47,840 nt of DNA from Bacteroidota bacterium (GTDB lineage: Bacteria; Bacteroidota; Bacteroidia; Bacteroidales; GCA-2748055): positions 1-47,840 of the forward strand of contig DAOWFP010000085.1 in the NCBI GenBank assembly GCA_030637895.1, written 5' to 3'. Positions 560-39,760 of the stretch are shown here, in pieces. The position numbers were made by a program, and so were the translations under genes. Position 1 is the stretch's first letter; every line of letters begins with the position of its first letter. The notes under the pieces are model-generated. The model was not told where the DNA came from and did not search any database. It saw only the letters and a list, made by a program, of their open reading frames with translations.

Positions 560-3500
560 CTAACGTATAACGATCTGCCTTTGGAGTTGTCGTTCGCCCG
601 AACGGAGCCTCAGGTAATACATACCCTGGGCCATCCCGCTCACATCGATGGTCTCCCTTATCTCCATCACATTAGCGAACTGCTTCACGATGATTTTTCG
701 CCCCAGTGAATCGAAGAGATCAAGGTACAGGGTTTCAACTTCAGAATACATGTATTCAATGGTCAAAAACTGGTCTGCAGGTACGGGATACACACTTAGC
801 TCGCCTGGCAGGAAACGGTCCACTATAGCCGTTGCTGGCGTAAGATAGATGGAATCTTTTCCTGTACACCCGCCGGGACTCATGACTTCGACCATGTACC
901 ATCCAAATTCATTGGCTTCATAGGTCTGGGTGCCGACAACTCCGTTCCACAGGTAGGACACATATCCTGCTCCGGCATCCAGCGTTACCGGAAGGGAGGT
1001 ACCCAGGGTATCATTCACCCCACCAAGTTCAGGCTCCGGAGATCCATAGTTTGTAATAAGCACATCCAGCTGATCATTAAGTGGATCATTATCCTTTGCA
1101 TACACGGTATAGGCCGAAATAGTATGATCCCCTACCCTGGAGAAGTCAAAATCAGTCCCCAGAAGAAGTTCAAGCGAATCACCGGGATACAGTGTCTCGC
1201 TAATGGAATATTGTCCAGTCACAGGAGCGCTTCCATCCACCGAATAAACCACACTGACCATCTCATCTAAAATAGGATGAGTTCCATAGTTTCTTATATG
1301 GAGCCTGAGTTCCTCCCGGTTCGAAAGGTAGCAGGCTGAGACCGGATCTGAAATGGATGAGACCCCCACATCCCACAGGTCAAAACTAATTTTCACTTCA
1401 TCTGCAGCTGAGCATCCATTGATATCCATTACCAGTACGCTGTACATGGAATCCGGACTTTGGTTTTCAAAGTCTACTACAAATAGCTGATCGGCTGACC
1501 CATCCTGCCATAGATAGGAAATGAATCCACTACCGGCATCCAGGGTGTGCGTTTTGGTATTCACCAGCCGGTCTGCTCCCAGAGATACTGTGGGAGAACC
1601 GTATACCTCAATGGATTGATCCAGGTGGTTATTTCCTGGAACCAGGTCCTTCGAATAGCTTACATCAATAACGAACTGATAGGTCCCAAGGGTACTCACA
1701 TCAACCGTCCCGGCCGAGGAGAAAAGGATTGAATCACCAGGCACTACCATTCTGTCAACAAACAGGGTATCATATACCAGGGGATCCCCGTTAACCTGGT
1801 AGCTAATGAAGATCGAATCATTTGCATAAAGGGTATCGCTACCCATATTCAGAATATAAAACTCTACCTGTTCTGTTGCAGAAAATTCACAGCCATCTGT
1901 GGGATTAAAGAGTCCTTCTATCCCCATATCCGGTATCAACATGCTTACAAGTACCGTGTCCGAGTTCTCGCACATGGTTCCTTGCTGTACTCTGACCCAA
2001 TATTGCCCGGTAGTATCGATCAGCAGGGTCTGATTGGTTGAAGCATCCTGCCACAGGTAGCTGTCATAGCCTCCACCTGCATCGATGGTATATGAAAATG
2101 CCCTGATCACTGTATCCGCTGCCAGATCAATGGGCGTATAACCAGAGACCTCTACGTTCACCTGCAGGTCATCATTTGTCAGGTCATTATCAAAGTCCAG
2201 TTCCGTATAGGACAATACGGTGTAGGTTTTTATGGCACTCATATCTGTAGCCGTAGTGAAGGAGTATTCAATTGAGCTGTCAGGAAGAAGCTCAGCAGCG
2301 AGAACTGCAATTTCCTCCACGACTGTTCCTGCATCAATTTGGTATCGAACCGGGACTTCATCTCCCACATGCAGGGTATCGGTACCAAAATTCGTGACCT
2401 CGATCCTTGGCCTGACGATGGCCCCCAGTTCACAGCTTGACACAGGATCCAGTATACTCGTCACGCCAACATCTGCGATCAGTAGATAGACATAGCTCGT
2501 ATCACTATATTCACAGAAAGAATTGCTGGCAGTTACATGGTACACTCCGTCTGCTATGGCACTTACATTAAATACAGGATCGGTGGTTCCATCGTGCCAG
2601 AGATAGCTATTGCTGGGATCGCCTGTATCGGCATCCAGTAAAATGGTATCCGGTCTCACAGTATAGACCTCCGATGGCAGATACACATAGGGCGTATCGG
2701 CCACCTCAAAGGACTTCGCCGTAGTATCATTGGTCACGGTTTCATTGTAGAAGTCAATGTCATCAGCCAGAAGGGTAAAGGCTTCGATGTTTTTGATTCC
2801 TGCTGACATGACCTCAAGGGATTCTATGAAAACATAGGGCATAGAACTTCCACGCAAGAGATTGCTTGAGAGTACAAAGGTGTCTCTTACGGTTGGCTCA
2901 GAATCAAGATCATATCCTACAATTAGGGTATCACCTGCCATAAGGGTATCAAGCCCGAAATTCATGATTGTCACTGCCACATGATCTCCAATTTCCTGAG
3001 CACAACCATCTATGGGAGACTCGATCGAGACAACTCCCACATCCCTGGGGGCAGCATAAATACGGATATCATCAATGCCAATGCCCTCTGCCCTTCCGGA
3101 TGCATCGCTTGAGAAATGGAAACGGAATTTTACACCAGGTGTGTTTCTGAATACGGTTGTATCCAGCATTATCCTTGCTGTATGCCATGGATCCGCCACA
3201 TTGGTCCATCCATGTCCACCGCTCAGTGCAGTTATGGCATCTGAATCATACCAGTTCCAGTCATAGGCCACACCATCGCCAAGATTGCCCACCCGTAACC
3301 AGGTCTGCCCGTTGTCCAGGGAATATTCAAGCATGGCACCATCATCACCGCTTTCGGTGTTGATGTATAAATTGCACTCGAAGACCGGGTAATCGATCCC
3401 TGTGAAATCGAAACAGGGCCCCAGCAGATAACTCTCCTCGTCGTTGGAATAAACTCCATCCAGGTCAGTTACCCAGGCATTCACCCCTGAAGCAGCTGTG

Positions 3501-5533: not shown

Positions 5534-5704
5534 TGAAGTAGGGACTAGTACCAATATATGACTCTAATACGGTTAAAAACTATATAAGGTTGCATGCCAT
5601 ATGAACAGCTAAAATTTCACAGTCCATACAACCATTCCAGCTTAGCTTTGGTCACGAAAGTGAACAAATTTAAGAACAAAGAATTTTTATACGACAGAAG
5701 GTAA

Positions 5705-8700
5705 ATGCAAATACAAAAATTATATACCAAAGGTTTCTTCCTTATTATCCTCTTGCTGACACAGGCTGTCAATAGTTTTTCTCAGACAGATGTTGAATTC
5801 TGGTTTGTGGCACCCGAAATAACCATAGGTCATGGAAATTTCCCAGGTGGTGAACCTGTATACTTCAGGGTGTCCGCCCTGGATCTGGATGCCACTGTAA
5901 GAATTTACCAGCCGGCCAATCCCTCCGGTTTGGACACTACCTTCACCGTTCCTGCCTCCGGCACTGTCTCCATTGATGCTTCTCCCTGGATAGATGACCT
6001 GGAGAACAGGCCGGGAGGAATTGTTCTGAACAAAGGGGTTCGTATTACTTCGACCAACCTGGTAACAGTATACTATGACGAGGATGAATACTGGAACCAG
6101 GATATTTTCGCCCTAAAGGGAAGTAATGCACTGGGACTGGAATTCTACACCCCCTTCAACGAAGTCTGGAACAACGGAAATTACAATCCCCTACCCTACA
6201 GCTCCATCGATATTGTTGCAACGGAGGACAATACTCAGATCACCATAACACCCACCGCAGCCATCGTAGGGCATGCGGCTGGAGTACCCTTTACTATCAC
6301 TCTGAATCAGGGGGAAACTTACTCCTGCCTTGCCACAAGTCAGTTAGCAGCCGGTCACCTGGGTGGAAGCCACATCCTCTCCGACAAACCCATTGCGGTA
6401 ACCCTTAAGGATGACTCGGTGGCTGGAAATGTATGCCGGGACCTGATCGGTGACCAGACCGTCCCCATTGTGAATGCGGGCGGCAGCAGAATTGTGGGTT
6501 TCGAATACATCGTCATGAGAGGAAAAATAAACCTCATCAATCCCAATGCTGCCATCCCGGACCCCGATGGCATTCCCACTGGAGAAAGAATTTTTATACT
6601 GGCCACTGAGCCTAACACACAGGTATTTATTGATGGGGTGCCTTACACAACAATAACCAATGCAGGAGAGCAGTCCGTATACGAAATTCGGAATAACTCC
6701 ACGCATGTGGAGGGTGACAAACCCATTATGATCCTTCATGCCTCCGGATTTGGCTGTGAGCTTGGCGGGGCCGTTTTACCTACCATTGATGGCTGCACAG
6801 GCTCGGTGGAAGTCAGTTTTACCAGGTCCACTGACCGCGATTTTTACCTGAATATTATGACCATCGATGCGGCCAAAGATGGTTTTACCATGCACTACGA
6901 GGATGGAAGCACCTTTGTCATTCCGGGTACCTGGTTTGAACCTGTGGGGGCCACCGACTATGTATGCCTGCAGAAAAACAACAAGAAATTTGCGAATAAC
7001 ACAGGTGGTGGGGTACCCCAGAGTGAAGTAGTCAAAATAACCAATTCAGTAAGTGTTTTTCACCTGGGTTTGATCGAGGGAGGAACAACCACTGGTTGTA
7101 AATACGGGTACTTCTCAGACTACAGTGCTGCCAGGGGCGATGTGCTGGTCGTTGAATCCGGTTCAAAATCCATTGCCCGCTGTTTCGGCGATACCATACA
7201 GTTAAGGGCAAACGGTGGAATCTCCTATTCCTGGTCCCCCTCTGTCTACCTGGACGATCCCTTTATTGCAACACCCATTGCCACACCTCCTCCTGGTGTA
7301 TACAATTATGATGTTACCCTGAACAGGGGCTGTTTCCCCGATACTACAATTTCGGTGATCGTGGCAATTGCCGAGCAGGTGGAATCATTTTTTGATACGG
7401 ATAAATGGTACATATGTGCTCCGGATACCGTAACCTTTACAAACGAGTCCTTTGGAGTGGATTGGTCAAGTGCGGCTAATGTGCAGTGGGACTTTGACCT
7501 GCAGGATCCTTCCAATCCCTTTGTATATGACACCAGTTCTAGCATACAGCGTGTCTTTACCAATACCACAGATTCCCTTATAACAACAACCATACAGCTG
7601 GTGGTCTGGAACTCCCAGAGTTGTATCAGCGAACTCCGTCGGGACCTTGTGATCAGGCCCGAAATTAACGCAGGTTTTACAAATGACATATCGGATGGAT
7701 GTCACCCGGTAACCGTAAACTTCACCAATACTTCCACTGGCAATACGGATCGGTACAAATGGACCCTTGGGGATGGGAATTCGGCCAATACCCCCAACGT
7801 AAGCCACACCTATTTTAACCAGGGAATGGCAGACAGCCTCTATCATGTGGAGATGGTGGCCATCTCACCTTTCTTCTGCACCGATACGGTGGAAACGGAT
7901 ATCGCTGTATATCCCTACATCGAAGCGGCCTACGCCATAGATACCTTCCAGGGATGTTCCCCCCTGATTATTAGCATCGATAATAATTCGGCCGGTTACA
8001 TCGAAGAGTACGAATGGACCATGGACGATGGCACCGTTTATTCCACTTCTGCCAGTACCTTCACCCATACCTATACAAATATCACTGCCGCCCCCATTGA
8101 GTATAATCTCCGCCTGGTGGTCAGGAACAATACCCGGGGATGCACCGATACCATCGTCCGGGTGATTTCAGTTTTCCCGGAAGTTACGTCTTCCTTTTTG
8201 CAGGATCTCTCCAGTGTTTGTCATGGAACGGAAGTAACATTCACCGACCAATCCACCACCACCGCCACCATGTTTGAATGGGATTTTGGCGACGGCGGAT
8301 TTTCGTCGTCAAAGGATCCATCCCATACCTTTGAAAACATGACGCCGGCAAATGTGAATTATATGGTCCGGCTGGTAGCTACCACAGCGAATCTCTGCCG
8401 GGACACATCCTATCGGCCCGTGCAGACACATCCATACATTCATGCCGAGTACTCGGTAAATGAATTCCAGGGCTGTGCACCTTTTGAGGTAGTTGTGCAA
8501 AATGCATCTTCAGGGGCGATTTCAGACTACGAATGGGACTGGGGCGACCTGTCCGCACCTTCCACTTCAGGGGACACGGTCCTCACACATCTCTATCAGA
8601 ATGCCGGGCCCACCAATGTAACAAACAGCCTTCAGCTGGTGGTTCAAAATGCAAATAACTGTACCGATACAATGATCAGGGATATCACTATCTTCCCCGT

Positions 8701-11545
8701 AGTAGTATCCCAGTTTACCCAGGATCTGATTGCCGGTTGTAATGAGCTTGAGGTGAGTTTTACCAATCAGTCCAGCGCATCTGCCACATCCTTCCTATGG
8801 GAATTCGGGGACGGCGGTTCCACCGACGAGCGCGATCCCGATCACCTTTTCCAGAATTTCGGATTAGCTGACTCTACCTTTACTACCAGGTTGATCGCGA
8901 CCACCATTGAGAATTGCAGAGATACCTCAGAGCAGGATATTGAAGTCTATTCCTATGTGAATGCCGATTTCACCTTCAGCCAGGCAACACTATGTACTCC
9001 TTACGATCTGACCTTATTTAACTCTTCCGTGGGTGGAGTGAGTTACCTCTGGGATTTTGGTGATGGCACGGATACACTGGTCTATAATACAAATTCAGTA
9101 ACACACCGCTTTACCAATCCCTCTCCCACCACGCCGGTGAACTATACCATCGAGCTCACTGTGACCAATCCTCAGGGTTGCATCTCCATTGAAAGCAAAG
9201 AGATCAATGTGATGCCCTCCGTGGAGGCAGGTTTTACAGCCAGTATTACCGAAAGCTGTAACCCGGTTACCGTGAGTTTTACCAATACAAGCACCGGTGC
9301 GATCAGCTATGCATGGGATTTTGGCAATGGACAATCCTCGGATCAGACTAATCCTCCCATGACCTTCGAAAACTACGGATTGAACGATACGGTATTCAAT
9401 GTACGGCTGCTGGCCACCAATGTGTATACCTGCCAGGATTCCTTCTTTGTACCCATCCTGGTGCACCCCCATGTGGATGCCGACTTTGCCATAGAATACC
9501 AGAGACAGTGTTCCGTGGCCGAGGTGACCTTCCATAACTCCTCGGTGAACGGACAGCAGTATGCCTGGACCTTTAACGGAGATCCGGTGGTGACAAACAG
9601 CGCCCAGCCCATCGACCTGCAATTTCCAAACAACAGCACGGTAAGCACAGCTACCTATCCGGTTGATCTCACGGTGACAAGCGCCGAAGGATGCACCGAC
9701 TATATTGCTAAACAGGTCACCGTATTCCACCGGGTCGACGCCAGTTTTACCAGCATCGGCGAAGGATGCAATCCCCTGGATGTAATCTTTACCTCTACCT
9801 CCCAGGGAGCCCTGGATTATAAATGGGAATTCGGGGACCAAACCTCCTCCATCCTGGAGAGTCCTAATCACACCTATTTAAATGAAAGCAATGTGGATTC
9901 TGTCTACCCGGTGAAGCTGACCGTAATTTCCGAGAATTTCTGCACCGACTCCGCCTTTGGCACCATCACAGTGTTCCCCGAACCCAAGGCCAAGTTCGAT
10001 GTGGACCAGACCGTTGGATGTTCGCCGCTGAATGTAAATGTAGAGAACCTGACCGAAGCAGGAAATACCTATACCTGGACTTTTGGTGATGGGTCGGCCC
10101 CGCTGGTATTAACAGATACCTCCCCCGTATCTCACTCATACATCAATGATCAGTTAGATGCAATATACCTGGAATTACGACTGGAGGTAACGAATACCCG
10201 GGGCTGTAGTGATTTCATTACGCAGACCATTACCGTTTATCCGAGCGTTGACGTTGATTTTGAACGCGATTCAGCAGGCTGCTCTCCCTATTTCTCGCAG
10301 TTCACCAATACCTCCATCAGAGCCTCAACCTTTGTCTGGGATTTCGGAGATGGTGGTTTCTCTTACGTTAGCGAACCCGGCCATACCTTTGTTAATACAG
10401 GAGAGAATAATCTGGTGGCGAATGTGGAACTTACAGGATATTCCCAGTACGGATGCACCGACTCCTTGATCAGGCAGGTTACCGTCTATCCATCGCCTGA
10501 GGTCAGGTTCAGTTATAACCCCATATACCAGTATTTCCCAAATACAACCGTAACGCTGGTGAATGAAACCAACGCAGGAACTTATGATTTCCAATGGGAT
10601 TTTGGTGACGGACTTACATCCACAGACAGAGATCCCGGATCACATAGCTTTACAGATTGGGGAGAATACAACATCAAGCTAAGTGCATCAAACAGCCAGT
10701 GCTCCGATTCTGTTATTCACTGGATAAAGATCTTCCCACCACAACCCATAGCCGATTTCACCGTGGATATTGATACAGGTTGTGTACCCCAGTATGTTGT
10801 CTTTACTAACAACTCCCTCTATGGGGATACCTATTTGTGGGAATTTGACGATGGCAGTACATCAACCGACTTTGAACCCACCCATACATTTACCAGGGGC
10901 GGATTTTTCCAGGTCAAGCTTACGGTAACAGGAGAAGGCGGTGTGGATTATGCCTTCCATGAATTCGAGATTTATGTGCTTCCCGAGCCTGACTTCTTCA
11001 TAGAACCTACCCTGGTCATGCTGCCGGATGAGCCGGTGAAAACATTCAACCTTTCTAAATACGGCGTTACCTACCAGTGGGACTTTGGAGATGGTACAAC
11101 TTACTTTGCACAGGATACTACCTATCAATATACCCTGCCAGGTGTCTATGATGTAGGGCTCCATGCGTGGACCGAACATGGCTGTGAGGCTAACAAGATT
11201 ATCCCGGAATACATTACGGTGATTGGAGAAGGAAGCATTGTATTCCCGAATGTATTCAAACCTAATCTCTATGGTCCCACAGGTGGATTTTACAACCCGG
11301 CAGAACATATGAATGAAGTATTCTACCCGGTGTATGAAGGTGTGGTTGAATACGAACTTAGCATATTTAACCGCTGGGGAGAACGCTTATTCATCACCAA
11401 CGATATCAACCAGGGCTGGGATGGCTACTACAAAGACAACCTCTGTGAGCAGGGCGTCTATATATGGAAGTGTACGGTTACCTACGGAAATGGCACTTCG
11501 GAAAACATGGCCGGTGACCTAACCCTCCTGAAAAAACCATTCTAG
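5705..11545 (+). CDS. Giant adhesin-like protein (1946 aa). It has a signal peptide, an IgGFc-binding-protein-like N-terminal domain, about 14-15 tandem PKD domains, and a T9SS type B (gliding-motility-associated) C-terminal domain.
   Basis: The ATG at 5705 is followed by the hydrophobic signal FFLIILLLTQAVNSFSQ. EFWFVAPE... begins the N-terminal domain. The PKD signature W(D/E/T)FGDG....(H)(T/S)(F/Y) recurs about 14 times between ~7.6 and 11.1 kb. The C-terminus is a type B CTD. Confidence 0.92.
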   Translation: MQIQKLYTKGFFLIILLLTQAVNSFSQTDVEFWFVAPEITIGHGNFPGGEPVYFRVSALDLDATVRIYQPANPSGLDTTFTVPASGTVSIDASPWIDDLENRPGGIVLNKGVRITSTNLVTVYYDEDEYWNQDIFALKGSNALGLEFYTPFNEVWNNGNYNPLPYSSIDIVATEDNTQITITPTAAIVGHAAGVPFTITLNQGETYSCLATSQLAAGHLGGSHILSDKPIAVTLKDDSVAGNVCRDLIGDQTVPIVNAGGSRIVGFEYIVMRGKINLINPNAAIPDPDGIPTGERIFILATEPNTQVFIDGVPYTTITNAGEQSVYEIRNNSTHVEGDKPIMILHASGFGCELGGAVLPTIDGCTGSVEVSFTRSTDRDFYLNIMTIDAAKDGFTMHYEDGSTFVIPGTWFEPVGATDYVCLQKNNKKFANNTGGGVPQSEVVKITNSVSVFHLGLIEGGTTTGCKYGYFSDYSAARGDVLVVESGSKSIARCFGDTIQLRANGGISYSWSPSVYLDDPFIATPIATPPPGVYNYDVTLNRGCFPDTTISVIVAIAEQVESFFDTDKWYICAPDTVTFTNESFGVDWSSAANVQWDFDLQDPSNPFVYDTSSSIQRVFTNTTDSLITTTIQLVVWNSQSCISELRRDLVIRPEINAGFTNDISDGCHPVTVNFTNTSTGNTDRYKWTLGDGNSANTPNVSHTYFNQGMADSLYHVEMVAISPFFCTDTVETDIAVYPYIEAAYAIDTFQGCSPLIISIDNNSAGYIEEYEWTMDDGTVYSTSASTFTHTYTNITAAPIEYNLRLVVRNNTRGCTDTIVRVISVFPEVTSSFLQDLSSVCHGTEVTFTDQSTTTATMFEWDFGDGGFSSSKDPSHTFENMTPANVNYMVRLVATTANLCRDTSYRPVQTHPYIHAEYSVNEFQGCAPFEVVVQNASSGAISDYEWDWGDLSAPSTSGDTVLTHLYQNAGPTNVTNSLQLVVQNANNCTDTMIRDITIFPVVVSQFTQDLIAGCNELEVSFTNQSSASATSFLWEFGDGGSTDERDPDHLFQNFGLADSTFTTRLIATTIENCRDTSEQDIEVYSYVNADFTFSQATLCTPYDLTLFNSSVGGVSYLWDFGDGTDTLVYNTNSVTHRFTNPSPTTPVNYTIELTVTNPQGCISIESKEINVMPSVEAGFTASITESCNPVTVSFTNTSTGAISYAWDFGNGQSSDQTNPPMTFENYGLNDTVFNVRLLATNVYTCQDSFFVPILVHPHVDADFAIEYQRQCSVAEVTFHNSSVNGQQYAWTFNGDPVVTNSAQPIDLQFPNNSTVSTATYPVDLTVTSAEGCTDYIAKQVTVFHRVDASFTSIGEGCNPLDVIFTSTSQGALDYKWEFGDQTSSILESPNHTYLNESNVDSVYPVKLTVISENFCTDSAFGTITVFPEPKAKFDVDQTVGCSPLNVNVENLTEAGNTYTWTFGDGSAPLVLTDTSPVSHSYINDQLDAIYLELRLEVTNTRGCSDFITQTITVYPSVDVDFERDSAGCSPYFSQFTNTSIRASTFVWDFGDGGFSYVSEPGHTFVNTGENNLVANVELTGYSQYGCTDSLIRQVTVYPSPEVRFSYNPIYQYFPNTTVTLVNETNAGTYDFQWDFGDGLTSTDRDPGSHSFTDWGEYNIKLSASNSQCSDSVIHWIKIFPPQPIADFTVDIDTGCVPQYVVFTNNSLYGDTYLWEFDDGSTSTDFEPTHTFTRGGFFQVKLTVTGEGGVDYAFHEFEIYVLPEPDFFIEPTLVMLPDEPVKTFNLSKYGVTYQWDFGDGTTYFAQDTTYQYTLPGVYDVGLHAWTEHGCEANKIIPEYITVIGEGSIVFPNVFKPNLYGPTGGFYNPAEHMNEVFYPVYEGVVEYELSIFNRWGERLFITNDINQGWDGYYKDNLCEQGVYIWKCTVTYGNGTSENMAGDLTLLKKPF
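11237..11542 (+). other. T9SS type B sorting domain (CHU_C-like, last ~102 aa)
   Basis: IVFPNVFKPNLYGPTGGFYNPAEHMNEVFYPVYEGVVEYELSIFNRWGERLFITNDINQGWDGYYKDNLCEQGVYIWKCTVTY..G..ENMAGDLTLL. The PN.F.PN....N..F.P......y.l.IfNRWGe.vf......WdG......g.Y.y pattern is typical of the family. Confidence 0.8.
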
Positions 11546-29266: not shown

Positions 29267-30565
29267 ATGAAAATCAAGCGACGTCAATTTCTTTCAACGG
29301 CTGCCTCCGGAGGGCTCGCAGCCTCACTCCCACTTTCATCCTGCAGCCGGAACGGTACAATTGAGGGTCCATCCGAACTTAAGGATAAGTACGAAAAGCT
29401 GGATCAAATCCTTAAACAGCAGGTATTTAAAAGAGAATTGTTCCCTTCACCTGTTATCATTGACACCCTCGAATTGCTCCGCTATGAAAATAATTTTCTA
29501 TGCCGGGTTCGCTCGAAGGATGGGGCTGAAGGTATTTCTGTTGGTCACGGATTCCAGTTGGAGTCTCTGTATCCGATTTTTACCAACCTGGTTCAACCTT
29601 TCTTTATTAATAAGGATGCGCGTGACCTTGACCTAATCATGGAAAAGGTATATATCTACAAACTTAACTTCAGGTTATCAGGGCTTGCTCTTGGGGCCCC
29701 TCTTGCCACCATCGAATTTGCCATTCTGGATATGATGGGGCATATCGCCGGCTTACCCATGGGCCAACTGATCGGGAACATACATCACCCGGAAGTGGAG
29801 ATGTACCAGGCCACCGAATACCGCGATAAACCCGTGGAGGAGTCCATGGAACTGATCACGAGGGATGTGGGCGAAAACAATGCCAGGGCGCTTAAGATAA
29901 AAGTTGGCGGACTCATGTTTGAGACAGAAGATCTTCATGCCGAGGGACCTCCAGGGCGAACAGAAATCATTATCCCCCTGGTGCGAAAAACCTTTGGGGA
30001 CGATTTGGTATTGTATGCCGATGCCAATGGTTTCTATTCGGTTGAAGAAGCGATCCGGGTCGGAAAATTACTGGAAGAATACAACTACCAGTTTTTTGAA
30101 GAACCCGTTCCCTTCCACTGGTACGAGGAAACAAAGGAGGTAGCCGATGCACTATCCATTCCCATTGCCGGTGGTGAACAGGAATTCAGCCTACATGGGT
30201 TTCGCTGGTTAATTGCCAACAATGGCCTTGAGATTGTCCAACCAGATTTATTCTATTTTGGAGGCATGATCAGGTCCATGAAAGTTGCACGAATGGCAGA
30301 GGCATTTGGGAAGTCATGTACTCCACATATGTCTGGCGGAGATCTGGGATTCCTTTATATGATGCATTTTGTATCGGTACTACCCAATGCCATGCCCCAT
30401 CACGAGTTTAAAGGATTTAGAACCAATGTGGTTTTTGAATGTAATACTTCACCACTTCAAAGTGTAAATGGTGTGGTTCAGGTTCCAACAGGACCCGGAT
30501 CAGGTGTGGACCTCGATCCTGATTTTATTGCTAAATTCAAGCCTGTCAAGACGAAATTCTCCTAG
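29267..30565 (+). CDS. Enolase-superfamily enzyme (mandelate racemase / muconate lactonizing enzyme family) with a Tat signal
   Basis: [26 protein letters not shown] is a Tat / lipoprotein-like signal. Superfamily motifs in order: ALKIKVGG (K.K), LYADANG (DAN), [16 protein letters not shown], then CTPHMSGG. Confidence 0.85.
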
Positions 30566-30775: not shown

Positions 30776-31591
30776 ATGAACCGATCTGATTATTGCTACT
30801 TCAATGGCGACCTGGTCGCCTTTGGGGACTTACATCTCCATGTCACCGACCTTTTGTTCCAGCGGGGCTACGGTATTTTTGACTTTTTTCGCAGTCGGAA
30901 CGGCAGCATCCCCTGGCTGGAGGATTATATGGAGAGGCTATTCACCTCTCTTGAGCTTTCAGGCATTGAGGTGGATCTCAACAGGGAGCAGTTTGCATCC
31001 GTCATCCACGACCTTCAGGAAAAAAACGGCATGGTTAACGGGGCATTCAAAGTTATCGTTAGCGGGGGGTACTCCGAAAACCTGGAGTCGGTAAGCGGCA
31101 AGGCAAACCTGGTAGTTCTGAACATCCCATGGAATAGACCGCCTGTAGAATCCTTTGAAAAGGGAGTAAATCTGATCTCTGAACGCTTTGTTCGCCCCAA
31201 TCCTGAAATCAAAACACTCTATTATTTTAACACCCTGAGGCTGCAAAAAAAACTCAGCGAGTTCAATGCAATAGATGTGATGTATCACAGCGACAGGATC
31301 TCTGAAGCATCCCGCGCCAACCTCTTTTTTGTCTTAGGCGACCGAATATATACACCCGCCAGCGACATACTGAAGGGGATTACCCGAAAGCAGGTGCTAT
31401 TATTGTCCAGCGAGATCCAGGTGGAGGATATCGAAGTCGGGCTCCTGTACGATTTCGACGAAATATTCCTTACCAGCACCTCCAGGGATGTTACACCGGT
31501 GGTATCGGTGGAAGGACAGAAAATCGGCAAGGGTACCCCTGGCCACATTACCCGTGAGATCCATGCAGCCTTCCAGGCAAAGGGGTGGTAA
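30776..31591 (+). CDS. Class IV (branched-chain / D-amino-acid / ADC-lyase type) PLP-dependent aminotransferase
   Basis: FNGDLV...HLHVTDLLFQRGYGIFDFFRSRNGSIPWLEDYMERLFTSL matches the fold-type IV N-terminal pattern. The candidate catalytic Lys is in NPEIKTLYYFN. Confidence 0.8.
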   Translation: MNRSDYCYFNGDLVAFGDLHLHVTDLLFQRGYGIFDFFRSRNGSIPWLEDYMERLFTSLELSGIEVDLNREQFASVIHDLQEKNGMVNGAFKVIVSGGYSENLESVSGKANLVVLNIPWNRPPVESFEKGVNLISERFVRPNPEIKTLYYFNTLRLQKKLSEFNAIDVMYHSDRISEASRANLFFVLGDRIYTPASDILKGITRKQVLLLSSEIQVEDIEVGLLYDFDEIFLTSTSRDVTPVVSVEGQKIGKGTPGHITREIHAAFQAKGW

Positions 31592-31761
31592 AAAGGATCA
31601 ATGTTGCTGGATTACATAATTTACAAATAGTGCATTACCTGGCAGAAATCTCGAGGATGTGCCTGAAAATAAAAAAGTTGCGTTTTTTGGATAAGTGCTA
31701 AAAATGTCGGAAATTATATGGCTTTTTGCTAATAAATCGAAATAGCAAATCAGCCATAGCT

Positions 31762-33825
31762 ATGAAACCTGGAACAATTTATAATTTTGTTCTGGAGCTG
31801 AAGCGCAGAAGAGTATTTCGAGGGATAGTTGTGTACGGCGCTTCGACTTTGGTATTAATTGAAGCTGCTACAAACCTGGCCCCTTACTTCGGCCGTGAAC
31901 ATCCGCCTACCTGGTTTGTGGTGCTGCTTGGGATAGGATTTTTTGTTTCCTTATGGTTTTCCTGGATCTATGATTTCACTCCTGGGGGTATTAAAAAAAC
32001 CGAACCCGTTTCAGACGTACCCGTAATCATCCCCAGAAAAGAAGTAAGAACCTATCAAACGACCACTTTTATAAGTGTTCTGCTTATAATAGGACTCCTA
32101 TCATATAACATAATACAAGGTCCAAAGGAAAAAAGGATAAGAGACCTGGAAAAATCCATTGCTGTACTTCCATTGGAAACAAATAACCTGAGTCCCAGTC
32201 AGGCTCTGAATTATGATTTTATTGGACGTGAAATTACCTCCAGTCTGTCAAAGGTAAAAGAATGCAGGGTATTAGTCTGGGATGATTGCAGACGCTATTC
32301 GAGAGGGAACAAAAATCCACAAGAAATAGGAAAGGAACTTGACGTATCTCTTCTATTGATTTGGGAACCCTATATAACAGATGAGCAACAGCATTTATTC
32401 GTAGAGCTCGTCTCTGTAGATCAGGCATCACTGCTATGGTCAGAAAGATTCGAAATAAAAGACTACTTGTCCACAGCAATAACCAAAATCAGCCGCAAAA
32501 TATCAAAAAAGATAACCAGAGAACTTCGGATTCCTCTTACCCCCCGGGAAAGAGCATTTATTGATGAACAGCCCTTTTCGGCCCAGGCAACTTTATATGC
32601 TTCCATGGGTAAAGCCAATACCCAGGATGCCTGGAATCAGACCGTTACTGGAAACATTGATAAAAATGGAAAGAACAACGACTTCACCGATTCCATAAGT
32701 TTTAGCACAGCGATTAAATACTTTACAGATGCCATCAAGGAGGACCCGGCATTTGCGGAGGCCTATGCTAACAGGGCAAAAGCAAGACTTATGGGGATAA
32801 GAGCAGGTTTTTTTGACAGGAGTGTACTGGATGAAAGCTGGGAAGATATCGAGAAAGCATTTGATCTAGATCCTAACCACCCTGAAGCTCATGTCGCCAT
32901 GGGATTTTATTATTACTATGGAAAAGAGCTCTATAGCCTGGCTGCGGTTTCATTCCAGAAAGCAAATGAACTTAGTCCCAGGAACAACGAGTACCTGTAC
33001 TATCTGATGAAAATATATGTCGAACTTGGGAACTGGAGGGAAGCCAAGGTTCTGAGCGACAAGGTACGGATGTCTAATCCCTACAATGCGCTTTTCTATA
33101 CCAATCTTGGACTTGTCTATGCGTATCTGGATGAAATTTCCACAGCACTATATTGCCAGGATAGGGCTACAGATATTCTGCCCCAATGGTCTGCCTCATA
33201 TATCAATAAGGCCTACTCACTATGCTTCAGGGGAAAAATAGCGGAAGCAAGGGAGTCTATTGTTGAAGCCATTGAAAATACAGGGAAGAGTTTTCATAGA
33301 TTCCATGCAGAGTTGGACCTGTATGATGGAAACTATGTCAGCGCTGTCCAGTATATAGAACTTGCCAATGAACAAGAGTTTAAGATTCTGCAAGAAAGCA
33401 AAGGAGACGCCTTCCTGATCAAAGCGAAGATCCATAAATATGCCGGACATTTAGATCAGGCCAAAGAATACTACGGTAAGGCCTCAGAATATTTCTCGGA
33501 TCAGCTTATACTGGATCCTGAAAACTATCATGACTATAGCAAGCTGGGGCTTGCCTACGCTGGCTTGGGAAAGAAAAAGCTGGCCATAGATAACGGACAA
33601 AAAGCGCTTGAGCTGGGCATGCAAAATTACAGTGGTTATTTCTTCCCTATAATTCTGTACGATATGGCTCTGAACTATGCAATAATCGGCGATCACGACT
33701 CCGCCCTGAATACCATCAAAGAACTACTGAACACCCGCTCTCTATACACCCTTGATTTTATAAAAATTGACCCGGACCTGAAGCCCCTGCTTGACGATCC
33801 CGGTTTTAAAGATCTTAACCCTTAA
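31762..33825 (+). CDS. Membrane-anchored tetratricopeptide-repeat (TPR) protein
   Basis: The ATG at 31762 (track TTG at 31726) gives MKPGTIYNFVLELKRRRVFRGIVVYGASTLVLIEA. This is the common ELKRR.VFR plus two-TM N-terminal module. TPR-like repeats follow (AEAYANRAKA, PEAHVAMGFYYY, ...). Confidence 0.8.
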   Translation: MKPGTIYNFVLELKRRRVFRGIVVYGASTLVLIEAATNLAPYFGREHPPTWFVVLLGIGFFVSLWFSWIYDFTPGGIKKTEPVSDVPVIIPRKEVRTYQTTTFISVLLIIGLLSYNIIQGPKEKRIRDLEKSIAVLPLETNNLSPSQALNYDFIGREITSSLSKVKECRVLVWDDCRRYSRGNKNPQEIGKELDVSLLLIWEPYITDEQQHLFVELVSVDQASLLWSERFEIKDYLSTAITKISRKISKKITRELRIPLTPRERAFIDEQPFSAQATLYASMGKANTQDAWNQTVTGNIDKNGKNNDFTDSISFSTAIKYFTDAIKEDPAFAEAYANRAKARLMGIRAGFFDRSVLDESWEDIEKAFDLDPNHPEAHVAMGFYYYYGKELYSLAAVSFQKANELSPRNNEYLYYLMKIYVELGNWREAKVLSDKVRMSNPYNALFYTNLGLVYAYLDEISTALYCQDRATDILPQWSASYINKAYSLCFRGKIAEARESIVEAIENTGKSFHRFHAELDLYDGNYVSAVQYIELANEQEFKILQESKGDAFLIKAKIHKYAGHLDQAKEYYGKASEYFSDQLILDPENYHDYSKLGLAYAGLGKKKLAIDNGQKALELGMQNYSGYFFPIILYDMALNYAIIGDHDSALNTIKELLNTRSLYTLDFIKIDPDLKPLLDDPGFKDLNP

Positions 33826-33835
33826 AAATTAAATT

Positions 33836-34030
33836 ATGGCTCAAGAAGATCATCCTTCACTACCAATTGTATGGTTTTTGGATGCAAATGACCTCCAGAA
33901 AAGAGATTTAAGCAATATTTGCTATAAGCTACTTGTGGATGCCATCATAGCATGGGAAGATAATCCCGAAAGCAAATTACAAGACTTAAGAGACACACTT
34001 AATGAGATCCTCGAGAAAAAATGTCCATAA
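33836..34030 (+). CDS. Small ORF A (64 aa), paralog of ORF B; candidate substrate or partner of the downstream radical SAM enzyme
   Basis: The ATG lies 10 nt after the TPR gene stop. It shares SLPIVWFLD and a C-terminal helix block with ORF B. No longer overlapping ORF exists. Confidence 0.6.
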   Translation: MAQEDHPSLPIVWFLDANDLQKRDLSNICYKLLVDAIIAWEDNPESKLQDLRDTLNEILEKKCP

Positions 34031-34114
34031 CCTAGCCCCCTGAGCGAATTTAAGTTGTAATGGCCATGCTCCATGAGCACCCATAATTTTAAATGTTAAT
34101 CCTTAAAACTAAAT

Positions 34115-34315
34115 ATGATGCCTAAAAAACCCCTTCCAATTGTATGGTTTGTGGACGAATCAAGACTCCCGGATGATGACCCAGAAAATCTCCCTGCTGA
34201 GGACAAAACTAAAAAAAGTAAGATAAAAAAGATTACAGAAGCAGTCGAGAAATTTGAGAAAGAGGAATTGACTCTGAAATGGTTAAGAGAAGAAATCGAT
34301 AGGATCATAAATTAA
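34115..34315 (+). CDS. Small ORF B (66 aa), paralog of ORF A; Lys/Glu-rich
   Basis: MMPKKPLPIVWFVDESRL... A 15-nt core is identical to ORF A. The C-terminal block EAVEKFEK.EELTLKWLREEIDRII aligns with DAIIAWEDNPESKLQDLRDTLNEIL of ORF A. It ends 30 nt before the radical SAM ATG. Confidence 0.6.
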   Translation: MMPKKPLPIVWFVDESRLPDDDPENLPAEDKTKKSKIKKITEAVEKFEKEELTLKWLREEIDRIIN

Positions 34316-34345
34316 TCGTAATCTAAGGTATTAATCTTGCGAACC

Positions 34346-35929
34346 ATGAATAAAAATTCCGTGGTTTTTATCGCTTTTGAACAGCGAGAAAACCTGGGGA
34401 TCGGATATATGCATGCTATCCTCTCCGGGGCTGGATACGAGGTAGGTATTATCGATGTCACGAAAGATAAGGCCGAAATACAGAAGGAGTTGCAGGAGCT
34501 GAATCCGGTGCTGGTTGGATTTTCGGTTATTTTTGAAAATCACATCTATGATTTCCAGGAGCTTATAGAATACCTGAGATCCAAGGGCATTCAAAGTCAT
34601 TTTACAGCGGGCGGCCACTTTGCCAGTCTGAGGCCCGCCGATCTTTTCGAGATTGCTCCCTCCCTTGATTCCATGGTCCGGTTTGAAGGCGAACATACTA
34701 TTCTCGATCTTGCAAATCACCTTCAACAGGACAAAGACTGGAAGAAGGTGCTTGGAATTTCCTACAGAAACAAAGGGGCCCTGGTAAACAATCAGCTGCG
34801 CCCTCTTGAGCCTGATCTTGATGCGTTTCCCCTCCCCTTTCGTCCAGAGATGAAAGAATATGCACTGGATAACAAATATGCCACGCTGCTTGCGGGGAGA
34901 GGTTGTATCTACAATTGTGCCTTCTGTGATATCAGGGAATTCTATGGGCAAGCTCCCGGACCTGTCAAACGAATCAGGAAACCGGAAAAGCTTGTTGAAG
35001 AGATGGAATACCTTCATAAGGAGCAAGACTGCTCTGTAGTTCTCTTCCAGGATGACGATTTTCCTCTGCTCACGAATCGATCATCCGATTGGGTGAAGGA
35101 ATTCTGTATGGCTCTCAGGGATAAGAACCTGGTTGGGAAGATCCTTTGGAAAATCAATTGCAGGCCCGATGAGGTGGATCTGGAGTTATTTGAATTAATG
35201 AAGGCGCACGGTTTGTTTAAAGTATACCTGGGCATTGAAGATGGCACCGATGCAGGATTAAAGCAAATGAATAAACGCCTCCAGGTATCTGATCATATGG
35301 AAGGGATTCAGATCTTAAAAGAACTTGGAATCAGCATCGATTATGGCTTCATGCTGTTCCAGCCTTCTTCCACTTACAAGCTGGTAAATGAAAACCTCGC
35401 TTTCCTGGAACAAATTTGCCAGGATGGCTACATGCCGGTTTTCTTCTTAAAAATGATGCCTTACCTGGCAACCAGGATTGAAAAGGAACTTAGAGAGGAA
35501 GGGCGCTTAAAAGGACGGCCTGGTTTTCTTGATTACGATTTCTACGAACAGTCCATGGACGATTTTTACTTCTTTGTAAGCGAAAGTTTCGGCACATGGT
35601 TCCATGGTCCCGGCGGATTAAACAATTACTCCAAATGGGTCGTAAACTATATAACCGTATTTAACTTCTTTATTGGATCCACTTCGGAGATTGAGCGTCT
35701 CACCGAAAGCATCCTGGAACAGGTAGCCGATTCAAACCACTTTCTTATCAAAACAATGAAAGAGCTGTCAGCTCTATTTGAATCCGGCAAGTACAGCATG
35801 GAAAATGATAGAATCCTGGATGAGTACAGAAGCTCAATTGAGCAAAAACACAGCTCTGCCCTTAAGATTGTTTCCGATCTTATTGTGAAGATCGAAGTGC
35901 ACCATCTCACAAAGGACCTCTTTGTCTAG
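34346..35929 (+). CDS. B12-binding-domain radical SAM enzyme (class B rSAM)
   Basis: The N-terminus has a Rossmann-like cobalamin-binding pattern: VVFIAFEQRENLGIGYMHAILSGAGYEVGIIDV...VLVGFSV. The radical SAM cluster motif CIYNCAFC (C.3C.2C) is at 34904-34927. There is no Cys-rich SPASM-like tail. The track start at 34337 is TTG; the ATG at 34346 is preferred. Confidence 0.9.
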   Translation: MNKNSVVFIAFEQRENLGIGYMHAILSGAGYEVGIIDVTKDKAEIQKELQELNPVLVGFSVIFENHIYDFQELIEYLRSKGIQSHFTAGGHFASLRPADLFEIAPSLDSMVRFEGEHTILDLANHLQQDKDWKKVLGISYRNKGALVNNQLRPLEPDLDAFPLPFRPEMKEYALDNKYATLLAGRGCIYNCAFCDIREFYGQAPGPVKRIRKPEKLVEEMEYLHKEQDCSVVLFQDDDFPLLTNRSSDWVKEFCMALRDKNLVGKILWKINCRPDEVDLELFELMKAHGLFKVYLGIEDGTDAGLKQMNKRLQVSDHMEGIQILKELGISIDYGFMLFQPSSTYKLVNENLAFLEQICQDGYMPVFFLKMMPYLATRIEKELREEGRLKGRPGFLDYDFYEQSMDDFYFFVSESFGTWFHGPGGLNNYSKWVVNYITVFNFFIGSTSEIERLTESILEQVADSNHFLIKTMKELSALFESGKYSMENDRILDEYRSSIEQKHSSALKIVSDLIVKIEVHHLTKDLFV

Positions 35930-36116: not shown

Positions 36117-37448
36117 ATGAAGGGAAAAACCCTCAAAACATATTTTGTTTCGGCACTAATATTTCTATTTGCACTTACTGCAGTTTCCCAGAGCAGGAAG
36201 GTTCCTGTATATAGCACCAGTGGGGACAATTTCGACTGTAAAGCCATGTCCTCAGCATACAGGACGTTTTTTAATGCTGATCTCTATCATACTGCCTACA
36301 TAACCTGGATTATAGCCTTTGATAATTGCCCGTCATCCAACAAAAGGATGTACCTGGATGGAGTCACCATGTACCGCTTCTTTATTGAAGAGGCCCCGGA
36401 AGGACCGGTCAGGGAAGGCCTGGTAGATACCCTGATGCTCATCTATGACCGCAGGATGGAAAATTTCGGAGAAGAAGGAAATGTCCTGGGCCGCAAAGGA
36501 AGAGATCTGCTTGCCTATCGTGGAAATGATATAGAACAGGTGCAGGAAGCCTATGAAATGCTTAGAATGAGCATTGAACTGCAAGGGAAGAAGTCTCAGG
36601 AATCCGTGTTACTCCTCAGCATAAAATCTGGTATTGCCCTGAACAATGTGGGAAGGATTGATGACAACCAGCTCATTGAGGATTATATCATAGCATCCGG
36701 AATCCTGATACAGCAGGAGAAAAGGAGCACCCGCTGGGAAAAAACCAAAGTGAAAATCGATGAGCTCATTCTAAACGAAGGTCTGCTTTCATGTGAAGCA
36801 TTCGACCAGTATTTTGAACCGCAATTTGAGGAGAATATGAACGATAAGCATTTCCTTAAGGAGATAGTAGCCATTTATAATACCTCAGGATGTGAGCGTT
36901 CGGATATCAATGTTGCAGCTTCAGAAAAACTGTACAGCTTTAAGCCCACTCCGGAATCTGCACATAAGTTGGCCATCCTGTTGATCACCGTGAACGAATA
37001 CGAAAAGGCAGCCGGGTATTTGAAAGAAGCCCTTCAAGGAGACAACATCGGCAGGGAAACCAGGGCAGAATGGAATTATGAATTGGCAGTAGTGAGCATA
37101 GGCTATGGGAATTATTGCGAGGCCATCGAGTATGCCCGGGAAGCGAACATGCTCAAGAGCGATTTCGGGAAAGCCTATATACTACTTGGAGATGCCTTCG
37201 TCGCTTCGCGTGAAAACCTTGGTGACGATTTCCAGCAGCGAACAGCTTTCTGGGCAGCTGCCGACATGTATCAAAAAGCCGCTTCGGTGGACCCTGACCT
37301 TGCAGAATCGGCTAACCAGAAGCTGGCTGAGTGCCGCAGTCTGTACCCTAACAACGAAGATATATTCTTCCGTGATTTAAAGAACGGGGATACCTACCTG
37401 GTTGGTGGATGCATCAAGGGATATACAACCGTACGATCCGATAGTTAG
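36117..37448 (+). CDS. Secreted all-helical, TPR-like protein, function unknown
   Basis: Signal MKGKTLKTYFVSALIFLFALTAVSQ. Helical repeat character, for example YEKAAGYLKEAL, YCEAIEYAREA, GKAYILLGDAF. Confidence 0.7.
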   Translation: MKGKTLKTYFVSALIFLFALTAVSQSRKVPVYSTSGDNFDCKAMSSAYRTFFNADLYHTAYITWIIAFDNCPSSNKRMYLDGVTMYRFFIEEAPEGPVREGLVDTLMLIYDRRMENFGEEGNVLGRKGRDLLAYRGNDIEQVQEAYEMLRMSIELQGKKSQESVLLLSIKSGIALNNVGRIDDNQLIEDYIIASGILIQQEKRSTRWEKTKVKIDELILNEGLLSCEAFDQYFEPQFEENMNDKHFLKEIVAIYNTSGCERSDINVAASEKLYSFKPTPESAHKLAILLITVNEYEKAAGYLKEALQGDNIGRETRAEWNYELAVVSIGYGNYCEAIEYAREANMLKSDFGKAYILLGDAFVASRENLGDDFQQRTAFWAAADMYQKAASVDPDLAESANQKLAECRSLYPNNEDIFFRDLKNGDTYLVGGCIKGYTTVRSDS

Positions 37449-38268: not shown

Positions 38269-38931
38269 ATGAAAAAAATATGCTTCCTGTTATTCCTAAG
38301 CTTCTCAACCCTAGCTTATTCTCAGGTTATTACAGAAGATGAGCTCAAATTGATGGTAAAAAGTGCTCAAGAGAAATGTGTTGGCGCTCACGAAAGCATT
38401 GTCCAGCGGACAAATGAGGAATTTGCAAAGTCAATCTGGGGTAAAAAGATCAGATTCAACGAAGCAAGCATTATTAGATTCTTCAACCATTCTGCTGGAG
38501 AAAAAGTCTCAGCTGGTGTTGATATTTTAAAGAGTTATCAAAATAATTGGGGCTACTCATATGATCAGAGTACAGCTGCGGACCTGTTAAAAGAAAATGG
38601 GCTAAGGATCTCAAAGTCTTACAATACCTTATGGATTATTGCCAGACAAGATTTGCTGTATGCCGAAAGTAAAACGGAGGGGAATAAGATCAGCTTAGAA
38701 TTATATTGTCCCCAGCAAAGATTTCTTGAGTTACTCAGAATCGGGCAGACTCAAAGCATCGAATTCTTAATCACCGGTTATAAGGGTGGTGTCTCTTCAA
38801 CAAACAAAATATACGGCGTGTTAACCGAGGTCCATACCGAAAAGCAGGTAATCAAATGTTCAAATGGGCATGAATTTGACAAGGCCCTTGGACATAAATT
38901 TTGTCCAACCTGCGGTGAGCCGATAGAATAA
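38269..38931 (+). CDS. Hypothetical protein with an N-terminal signal peptide and a C-terminal zinc-ribbon-like CxxxH...CPxCG motif
   Basis: MKKICFLLFLSFSTLAYSQ. The C-terminus is KCSNGHEFDKALGHKFCPTCGEPIE. Confidence 0.6.
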   Translation: MKKICFLLFLSFSTLAYSQVITEDELKLMVKSAQEKCVGAHESIVQRTNEEFAKSIWGKKIRFNEASIIRFFNHSAGEKVSAGVDILKSYQNNWGYSYDQSTAADLLKENGLRISKSYNTLWIIARQDLLYAESKTEGNKISLELYCPQQRFLELLRIGQTQSIEFLITGYKGGVSSTNKIYGVLTEVHTEKQVIKCSNGHEFDKALGHKFCPTCGEPIE

Positions 38932-39175: not shown

Positions 39176-39760
39176 TCATTCAATCTCAATAACGCTGTCA
39201 GCATTATCAAAAATGGTCTTTACCATAGCCTGCCATTTCAACGGAAAGAGTTTCTTGCTTTCTTCAGTAGCATCGGGACCCAGGGCCATTTGCATCACAG
39301 CACCGGAATTAACCACCTTTGTAGGATCATAGCTTACCTCCACACTCTCGAAAGTATCAAGTCGTGTAAAACGCACATTTGATGAAATCTCTACACCGTA
39401 AAACAAAAGTCCCCTACGGTCATACTTACCATTTATCCCGCGGAATCCGGAATCTGCAGTTGCCCCGGTAATATTTGACAACACCTGTGCAGCGGCTCCT
39501 GTATTTCCTACCTGCAAAGATTCCCGCAATTCTACCCTGATCTCCCCTCTCCTGGGCAGTTCTGTTCCATAAAGCTTTTTAAGCCCTTTCAGCGCCATAA
39601 GATATGTGCCGCTTACAAGAACGCAGCTATGGCCAGCCATTTTCACTATATCGAGGTAGGAAATATCAATCATTCCTTCCTCGCTTGATCCAAGAAAACT
39701 ACTTAGTTCATCCCTAAGGATGATGTGCTCAACTTCATTATAAAATTTGGGATATTCCAT
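39176..39760 (-). CDS. Hypothetical cytoplasmic protein; weak FmdE-like resemblance
   Basis: A clean 194-aa ORF. MAGHSCVLVSGTY is loosely reminiscent of the GH.CPG motif of FmdE-family proteins. The function is not supported beyond that. Confidence 0.6.
   Translation of the reverse strand: MEYPKFYNEVEHIILRDELSSFLGSSEEGMIDISYLDIVKMAGHSCVLVSGTYLMALKGLKKLYGTELPRRGEIRVELRESLQVGNTGAAAQVLSNITGATADSGFRGINGKYDRRGLLFYGVEISSNVRFTRLDTFESVEVSYDPTKVVNSGAVMQMALGPDATEESKKLFPLKWQAMVKTIFDNADSVIEIE

Follow-up and report, generated by a model that had tools for sequence, protein, structure and literature searches.

The 47,840-nucleotide (nt) stretch of Bacteroidota DNA analyzed here, which we call the window, carries a gene module in which two tandem open reading frames (ORFs) for small proteins precede the gene of a predicted class-B, or cobalamin-binding, radical S-adenosylmethionine (SAM) enzyme. 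Our comparative analysis identifies this recurrent pairing as a real, uncatalogued enzyme and small-protein module, found in Bacteroidota, in a Planctomycetota metagenome-assembled genome (MAG), and in the complete Ca. Bathyarchaeota genome CP070759.1 (taxon labels are those of the MAG records), and its most likely function is protein modification. All three genes lie on the forward strand: ORF A (64 amino acids, aa) at 33836–34030, ORF B (66 aa) at 34115–34315, and the enzyme gene (527 aa) at 34346–35929. The stop of an upstream gene for a tetratricopeptide repeat (TPR) protein, at 33825, lies 10 nt ahead of ORF A; a gap of 84 nt separates the two small ORFs, and one of 30 nt lies between the end of ORF B and the enzyme ATG at 34346. 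The coordinates, spacings, and strands given for these three genes in an earlier reading of the same DNA (the original prediction) are thereby confirmed.

Loci were gathered by enzyme similarity alone, from six GTDB genomes, 80 metagenome contigs found with patterns derived from the enzyme alignment, and several exact-protein look-ups; individual loci are cited by number (L002, for example). At loci with at least 330 nt of upstream sequence, we searched for an ATG-initiated ORF of 45–140 aa on the same strand, ending no more than 200 nt from the enzyme start. Such an ORF was present in 84 of 84 loci, compared with 22 of 84 (26%) for the opposite strand and 14 of 76 (18%) downstream of the enzyme, and the linkage holds over enzyme identities of 43–100% to the window enzyme. 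Enzyme homologs without an adjacent small ORF, which the original prediction had named in advance as evidence that should overturn it, did not occur among these loci. All close homologs (at least 64% identity) with upstream sequence carry ORFs of the PIVW/PILW type. The outgroup B12 radical SAM genes of Burkholderia and Sinorhizobium plasmids, at about 31% identity, have no such ORF upstream, so the association is specific to this enzyme clade, for which at least 463 metagenomic relatives were confirmed, along with about 1,500 clusters of proteins. Similarly, a search of plasmids and phages returned only outgroups, at 31% identity or less and in different contexts. The number of small ORFs per single enzyme gene ranges from one to three in tandem: most loci have one, the window and L002 have two, and L007 and L009 share three orthologous paralog types. 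Paralogs retain the motif described below, while elsewhere their identity falls to about 30%.

The small ORFs are real genes under purifying selection. Comparison of ORF A, ORF B, and the third paralog type with orthologs in L002, L007, and L009 gave dN/dS values of 0.16–0.62: 0.16–0.42 for ORF A (orthologs at L002 5516–5713, L007 2537–2728, and L009 1115–1309) and 0.20–0.62 for ORF B (L002 5800–5976, L007 2811–2987, and L009 1391–1567). Matching small ORFs were predicted by independent gene callers in unrelated assemblies. In the window, ORF A, of the “EILEKKCP” paralog type, is deposited as hypothetical protein P0125 and ORF B as hypothetical protein P0138. For ORF B, the second ATG, at 34118, is the more likely start judging from P0138 and the orthologs, and would yield a protein of 65 aa beginning MPKKPLPIVW. 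The two proteins had been proposed to be paralogs, and they are: BLASTP aligns them over the N-terminal block only (E 5e-5), and the family alignment supports the C-terminal helical block. ORF B shares the motif of ORF A and has a diverged helical part rich in Lys and Glu.

The most conserved part of these proteins is a short linear motif near the N-terminus. It reads LPIVWFLD in ORF A (residues 9–16; 33860–33883), where it aligns with the superfamily motif given below, and LPIVWFVD in the same family columns of ORF B (34133–34156). Searching with a profile built from nine small ORFs brought up 41 protein clusters of 58–96 aa, none with a Pfam domain and all labeled “hypothetical” or unnamed except for one automatic JGI label. 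The small ORFs are thus conserved, whereas a lack of conservation was among the findings that the original prediction had named as refuting it. In this 41-member family, every sequence has P10, and conservation reaches at least 90% for I11, V12, W13, L15, and D16. The motif follows enzyme divergence: where enzyme identity is at least 64%, it takes the form (L/P)PI(V/L)W(F/H/Y/W)(L/M)D, and below about 60% it has diverged, for instance to QDWVMDPCKF, PPAWRMDP, EYWMNPGSC, or EWVMDPPPW.

Profile comparison with hhalign linked the window-type group (A4) to a distant Bacteroidota-type group (A6) with 89% probability (E 2e-6), and A6 to a third group of the “M.PEEMKLP...W.MDPPP” type (A7) with 92% probability (E 5.5e-7). 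By transitivity, these profile matches place A4, A6, and A7 in one superfamily. An ungapped motif search yielded P-[I/P]-[E/D]-[W/F/Y]-x-[M/L]-[D/E/N/H]-[P/A], for which the short form P-x-[D/E]-[W/F/Y]-x-[M/L]-D-[P/A] serves as the superfamily consensus. In leave-one-out scoring, 44 of 76 unique sequences reached a motif score of at least 7.5, compared with a mean of 1.4 and a maximum of 2 in shuffled sets, a contrast inflated by kinship among the sequences. For L005, L062, and L082, the small ORF had been picked automatically in the wrong frame or with the wrong start for this scoring; the correct ORFs do show the motif. The best-kept motif residue is the Asp, which A7 retains without exception and which is conserved to at least 90% in A4. 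The original prediction had singled out Ile-Val-Trp-Phe as the invariant stretch, which does not hold: what the superfamily keeps is aromatic-x-[M/L]-Asp-[P/A]. In the branch of the window, the motif begins at residues 3–10, and in the wider superfamily at residues 3–69.

Outside the motif, only a helical pattern is kept. An AlphaFold2 (AF2) model of ORF A, based on the 41-sequence alignment, predicts two helices (residues 27–42 and 48–62) at a predicted local distance difference test score (pLDDT) of about 85 and a motif-bearing N-terminal arm that is extended, unstructured, and of low confidence, so that the small protein is modeled as an N-terminal linear motif followed by a C-terminal helical hairpin. 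No hairpin residue is conserved across all three groups; cysteine and aromatic positions recur within groups (Y..KC in A6 and IC in A4). A Foldseek search of the model against the PDB returned nothing below E = 1, profile searches of PDB sequences with the small proteins gave only coiled-coil or designed-helix noise, and no family was found when 50 diverse small proteins were scanned against Pfam and NCBIfam. An exhaustive profile search of 1.84 billion representatives returned 36 clusters, of 55–96 aa apart from two long repetitive proteins that look spurious. In none of the 36 clusters was the small protein fused with the enzyme or with any other domain, and none of the 240 enzyme homologs listed was fused to a small protein.

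On all sequence and fold criteria, the enzyme is assigned to the class-B radical SAM family, with predicted use of cobalamin and SAM. As expected from the original prediction, it matches PF02310 (B12-binding; residues 16–122, E 1.3e-15, 57.7 bits against a cutoff of 32.1) and PF04055 (Radical_SAM; residues 184–336, E 1e-17, 65.3 bits against a cutoff of 29.5), both above the Pfam cutoffs. Its CxxxCxxC cluster motif, formed by C187, C191, and C194 (C-IYN-C-AF-C; 34904–34927), is invariant in 230 of 230 homologs, which span 37–100% identity and share many further invariant residues, including in the C-terminal half. The AF2 model (pLDDT 84, predicted TM-score 0.82) comprises a Rossmann B12 domain, a radical SAM TIM-barrel core, and a C-terminal four-helix bundle (approximately residues 402–521). 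Its best Foldseek match is OxsB (5ul4; E 1e-19, TM-score 0.64), followed by QCMT/MgmA (9ccb) and then TsrM, AprD4, CysS, and TokK, with E values from 1e-19 to 1e-13 overall; OxsB also led the profile search of PDB sequences, at 88 bits.

The reported lack of a Cys-rich SPASM tail is upheld as well: no SPASM domain was matched in Pfam or NCBIfam, the C-terminus is helical in the model, and C272 is the sole invariant cysteine beyond CxxxCxxC in the 230 homologs, which argues against a SPASM domain or auxiliary cluster. No NCBIfam equivalog cutoff was reached. The best score was to BchE (122 bits against a cutoff of 481), followed by PhpK (116 against 600), ApyD (106 against 750), the ladderane enzyme (89 against 360), HpnR (88 against 650), QCMT (TIGR04014; 74 against 360), and TsrM (30 against 500). 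HpnJ and BzaD were likewise below their cutoffs, so that none of these scores assigns the enzyme to a known clade of non-peptide function, an outcome that the original prediction had named as refuting it. A known anti-phage defense system was also considered and rejected, because PADLOC gave only a weak, generic radical SAM match to the candidate PDC-M51A (37 bits) for the enzyme; it returned no match for the small ORFs or the TPR proteins.

In Bacteroidota, the conserved module includes a third gene, encoding the TPR protein; elsewhere it consists of two. An ortholog of this gene lies directly upstream of the small ORF or ORFs in 47 of the 60 loci for which 900 nt or more of upstream sequence was available, including L001–L007 and L010–L012, and the 13 loci without it are mostly of higher GC content and not Bacteroidota-like. 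The other neighbors in Bacteroidota are shuffled, the TPR protein cluster being the only one conserved across loci. In the window, the TPR gene occupies 31762–33825 (+) when read from the ATG that is probably its start (687 aa), as in orthologs of 686–687 aa; the longest ORF begins at a TTG at 31726 (699 aa). The protein matches TPR families and NF047558 (TPR_END_plus). In the 699-aa reading, hydropathy marks hydrophobic segments at residues 63–81 and 112–130 and a weaker one at about 33–55, followed by a “SIAVLPL” TolB-N-like region, TPR repeats, and a TPR end-of-group domain. Two forms occur across loci: one of about 690 aa with three hydrophobic segments, a “SIAVLPF” TolB-N-like region, and TPRs, and one of about 810 aa with an N-terminal TIR_2-like domain, a single transmembrane segment, and the same C-terminal part. 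The TIR_2 match is weak but near full length (E 0.006–0.015, under the Pfam cutoff). Examples of the longer form are found at L071 (1149–3620), L023 (1196–3619), L059 (1269–3737), L081 (1286–3724), and L032 (90–2531), and its N-terminal domain of 200 aa starts “YDIFISYRQKDN”. Hydropathy suggests that both forms place the TPR part outside the cytoplasm and that the longer form has a receptor-like topology with a cytoplasmic TIR-like domain.

The pair stands alone, without the TPR gene, in the Planctomycetota MAG (small ORF KKEWVIDPPPW), on a 2.9-Mb contig (EHQTDPAP), and in Ca. Bathyarchaeota CP070759.1 (PKEWVIDNAF). Neighbors differ in every non-Bacteroidota locus, and no additional small gene is conserved across loci. 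Within the window, no terminator separating the TPR gene, the small ORFs, and the enzyme gene was found by a terminator scan, and Rfam and tRNA scans of the whole window gave no match, either to a cobalamin riboswitch or to another RNA. An alignment of the 81–86 nt spacer between ORF A and ORF B from four loci revealed no conserved element; Bacteroidota promoters lie outside the coverage of the tool used for the promoter scan.

The original prediction cast the small ORFs as either substrates or obligate partners of the enzyme, the whole forming an undescribed cassette, and this proposal gains support from adjacency at all 84 loci, from purifying selection, and from the fact that no curated clade cutoff is reached. 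The reading we favor, to which we assign an even chance of being right, is that the small proteins are substrates engaged by the enzyme at the motif, with C-methylation as the preferred chemistry. Strict adjacency, variable copy number, retention of a short motif, and a highly conserved enzyme together suggest that the enzyme engages the N-terminal arm. The occurrence of one to three copies that keep the motif while the rest diverges is typical for substrates and unusual for stoichiometric subunits, and conservation of the enzyme through its C-terminal domain would fit a conserved target. In the mechanism we propose, the unstructured arm bearing P-x-[D/E/V]-[W/F/Y]-x-[M/L]-D-[P/A] would be held between the [4Fe-4S]/SAM site and the cobalamin, and the enzyme would functionalize an unactivated C-H bond within or beside the motif. 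C-methylation would be the likeliest reaction a priori, since every functionally characterized group of the class-B radical SAM family includes C-methyltransferases (PMC12931638). The hairpin would probably dock on the enzyme, with the C-terminal helical bundle as a plausible site, in the manner of a follower or leader peptide. The product would probably be intracellular, either the small protein in modified form or some peptide derived from that protein and not an exported antibiotic, and in Bacteroidota it would probably act jointly with the membrane-anchored TPR protein encoded upstream.

Several observations weigh against this reading. Conservation of the motif fits a recognition box as well as it fits a modification site, and modification of the small proteins is something we infer. 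OxsB, the nearest solved fold, is not a methylase. Pfam, NCBIfam, and the enzyme model revealed no PqqD-like domain, the recognition element (RRE) of RiPPs (peptides synthesized by the ribosome and modified post-translationally), in the enzyme or its neighbors, and no peptidase, exporter, or further tailoring gene is conserved near the pair across the loci examined; the absence of such genes nearby, already reported for the window, thus extends to related loci. A direct hhalign comparison of A4 with A7 was not significant, so that the groups are joined only transitively. In addition, the periplasmic topology suggested for the TPR protein makes direct contact with the small protein uncertain. 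In line with OxsB as the nearest structural relative, we also considered chemistry other than methylation at W-x-M-D-P, such as a cross-link, rearrangement, or excision, leading to a protein-derived cofactor or to an intracellular or periplasmic signal of an ancient bacterial-archaeal system, read or relayed in Bacteroidota by the adjacent receptor-like TPR protein; we consider this quite improbable.

Among explanations in which the motif is not the modified site, the one we take most seriously, while still considering it unlikely, gives the small protein the part of a non-substrate partner (for example a subunit, chaperone, activator, or inhibitor) docking through its motif on an enzyme that acts on a small molecule, a lipid, or a tetrapyrrole-like compound, as BchE, HpnR, the ladderane enzyme, and OxsB do. 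The leading NCBIfam similarities, BchE and PhpK, act on small molecules, OxsB is the top fold, and a folded helical part, a housekeeping-like neighborhood without conservation, and the missing RiPP-type peptidase, exporter, and RRE would all suit a partner. Against it stand copy numbers of one to three per enzyme gene, rapid divergence outside the short motif, which is unusual for an obligate subunit, the lack of any fusion with the enzyme among the 36 clusters or the 240 homologs listed, and NCBIfam scores that all lie far under the cutoffs. Distinctly less probable, in our judgment, is a reversal of RiPP roles, with the N-terminal motif as a leader recognition box and the C-terminal helical part as the modified core. 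The form Ar-x-[L/M]-[D/E/N], where Ar is an aromatic residue, does resemble the FNLD box bound by NisB and NisC (PMC5294574), and RiPPs usually combine a conserved recognition element with a variable remainder. The paralogs likewise differ chiefly in the C-terminal part, and cysteines and aromatics recur in the A6 and A4 hairpins. However, FNLD boxes are read by RRE domains, of which none is detectable, and the presumed core is predicted to be a folded hairpin instead of a flexible peptide, with no residue common to all three groups.

It is very improbable that the small proteins are autonomous regulators, such as ribbon-helix-helix (RHH)-like DNA binders or antitoxin-like proteins, that are merely co-transcribed with the enzyme. 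A strand-prone N-terminal segment followed by two helices is superficially RHH-like, and a position at the head, before the enzyme gene, would suit an autoregulator. Yet 52 members gave no match to RHH or any other Pfam or NCBIfam family, no RHH-type PDB sequence matched at E below 0.02, Foldseek was equally negative below E 1, and the strand-to-helix linker of about 10 residues is long for an RHH protein. Moreover, tandem triplication and a motif rich in Pro, Trp, Met, and Asp, kept from archaea to Bacteroidota alongside one enzyme clade, would be unexpected of such a regulator. Finally, the small ORFs are short, belong to no database family, and occur in Bacteroidota, where clear Shine-Dalgarno signals are not available as a check, all of which might suggest chance or non-coding intergenic ORFs. 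The comparative data refute this possibility, to which we give practically no weight, through the dN/dS values, the 41 homologous clusters, the excess of upstream ORFs over the 18–26% of the controls, and a motif far beyond that of shuffled sequences.

Comparison with known systems places the favored substrate reading in context. The original prediction cited PoyB/PoyC and TsrM as precedents; closer parallels are bottromycin, for the architecture in the branch of the window, and the nisin FNLD box, for the motif. The core of the bottromycin precursor BotA is GPVVVFDC. In the branch of the window, the motif likewise follows 2–9 residues after Met, is rich in Pro, β-branched, and aromatic residues, ends in Asp, and precedes a helical C-terminal part. 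In bottromycin, the N-terminus of the precursor (BtmD/BotA) immediately after Met becomes the product, a C-terminal follower is retained for recognition, and cobalamin-type radical SAM methyltransferases β-methylate core residues (PMC5103208). Unlike in bottromycin, no YcaO, amidohydrolase, P450, M17 peptidase, or exporter occurs in the window neighborhood or in related loci, the C-terminal part is a conserved helical hairpin, and in the wider superfamily the motif lies 5–40 residues from the N-terminus. The likeness to class I lanthipeptides concerns their FNLD leader box, which the modifying enzymes recognize (PMC5294574): a short aromatic-x-Leu-Asp box in a variable N-terminal region, represented here by W-F-L-D, W-H-L-D, and W-V-M-D. 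That box is read by the dehydratase NisB, which contains an RRE, and by the cyclase NisC, with no radical SAM enzyme involved, and the resemblance is one of form only.

Among class-B enzymes acting on ribosomal products, ApyD (aminopyruvatide; NF050148), the third-best NCBIfam similarity, C-methylates the unactivated β-carbon of an aromatic residue, giving β-methyl-Tyr, in the sequence G-Y-L-Y-D of a ribosomal peptide (PMC11117315). Its short target motif also ends in Asp, but lies at the C-terminus of ApyA and not, as in the small proteins, at the N-terminus; ApyD itself carries an RRE and works with MNIO, P450, and methyltransferase partners, none of which has a counterpart here, and the score of our enzyme is far under the ApyD cutoff. 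Mmp10 and QCMT/MgmA are class-B radical SAM methylases that modify protein residues of methyl-coenzyme M reductase (PMC12931638). They work, as the present system would, without an RRE, peptidase, or exporter, and QCMT is the second-best fold match to our enzyme, with an NCBIfam score below the cutoff. Their substrate, however, is a large enzyme instead of a dedicated small protein encoded alongside, and the domain order of Mmp10 is reversed. OxsB, of oxetanocin A biosynthesis, shares with our enzyme the N-terminal Rossmann domain, the radical SAM core, and a helix-bundle domain at 17–19% identity, but has an extra N-terminal domain and performs a ring contraction on a nucleotide substrate without a small-protein partner. 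The partner of OxsB is the HD-domain protein OxsA.

Of the features of a canonical RiPP cluster, the module has the adjacent small precursor-like gene, in one to three copies, and lacks the RRE and the conserved peptidase or exporter; the Cys-rich C-terminal cluster domain of SPASM/twitch peptide maturases is also missing. We therefore rate the system as a candidate case of a radical SAM enzyme that has its own, putative ribosomal substrate, of an atypical kind in its folded small partner and in the absence of RRE, peptidase, and exporter. Its reach across bacteria and archaea and its association with a TPR membrane protein in Bacteroidota are atypical as well.

Some neighboring genes deserve mention in their own right. 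The only exporter-like neighbor of the pair is a fused membrane and ATPase ABC transporter, divergently oriented upstream of it in L091 and L092 (2536–4356 and 226–2046, respectively, − strand), which is restricted to one non-Bacteroidota lineage and not conserved elsewhere. At L093 (Ca. Bathyarchaeota CP070759.1, 172.7–184.3 kb), a 99-aa coiled-coil ORF (4227–4526) precedes the 81-aa motif-bearing ORF, and the pair may have been acquired horizontally, as a phage-integrase-like gene nearby hints. The nearest plasmid-borne outgroup (31% identity) is one of three tandem radical SAM genes at L095 (Burkholderia stagnalis plasmid NZ_CP156687.1, 206.7–214.9 kb), where a 55-aa hypothetical ORF without the small-protein motif, AzlC/AzlD permease genes, and a LuxR-type autoinducer-binding gene also occur; this is apparently a different, uncharacterized multi-radical-SAM cluster. 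In the window, the gene downstream of the enzyme (36117–37448, +) encodes a 443-aa TPR-like protein with a signal-peptide-like N-terminus and weak TPR/MamA-like matches. It was considered as a part of the module and rejected: it lies two genes further on in L004 and L005, is absent elsewhere, and is probably outside the module. Beyond it, proteins of 220 aa (38269–38931, +) and 194 aa (39176–39760, −) have no Pfam match; the former is about 71% identical in L004 and L005 and ends in a zinc-ribbon-like CxxC...CxxC tail (CSNGHEF...CPTCG). Upstream of the TPR gene, an MR_MLE enolase-superfamily protein with a TAT-like signal (29267–30565) and a class IV aminotransferase (30776–31591) are syntenic in the closest relatives only and have no link to the cassette. 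Two giant divergent genes fit the Bacteroidota origin of the window: a 1664-aa type IX secretion cargo with a Por_Secre_tail domain (560–5554, −) and a 1946-aa type IX cargo with nine PKD stretches, IgGFc_binding, and a CHU_C sorting domain (5705–11545, +).

We found no description of this cassette in the literature, within a coverage of subscription journals that was partial, and an earlier description may exist. By the count of a 2026 review, the cobalamin-dependent radical SAM family spans more than 100 groups with 83,589 accession IDs, and the largest groups are unexplored (PMC12931638). In this setting, the present enzyme clade offers a hint of its own as to substrate: the dedicated small protein and its conserved linear motif. 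Should this protein indeed be the substrate, the pair would constitute a minimal, directly expressible two-gene system suited to finding a new post-translational modification. Needing no RRE, peptidase, or exporter, it would fall outside the scope of RiPP-mining tools, and it would represent a system common to Bacteroidota, Planctomycetota, and Bathyarchaeota of anoxic habitats. The module would also offer a way to learn what the abundant TolB-N/TPR membrane proteins of Bacteroidota do.

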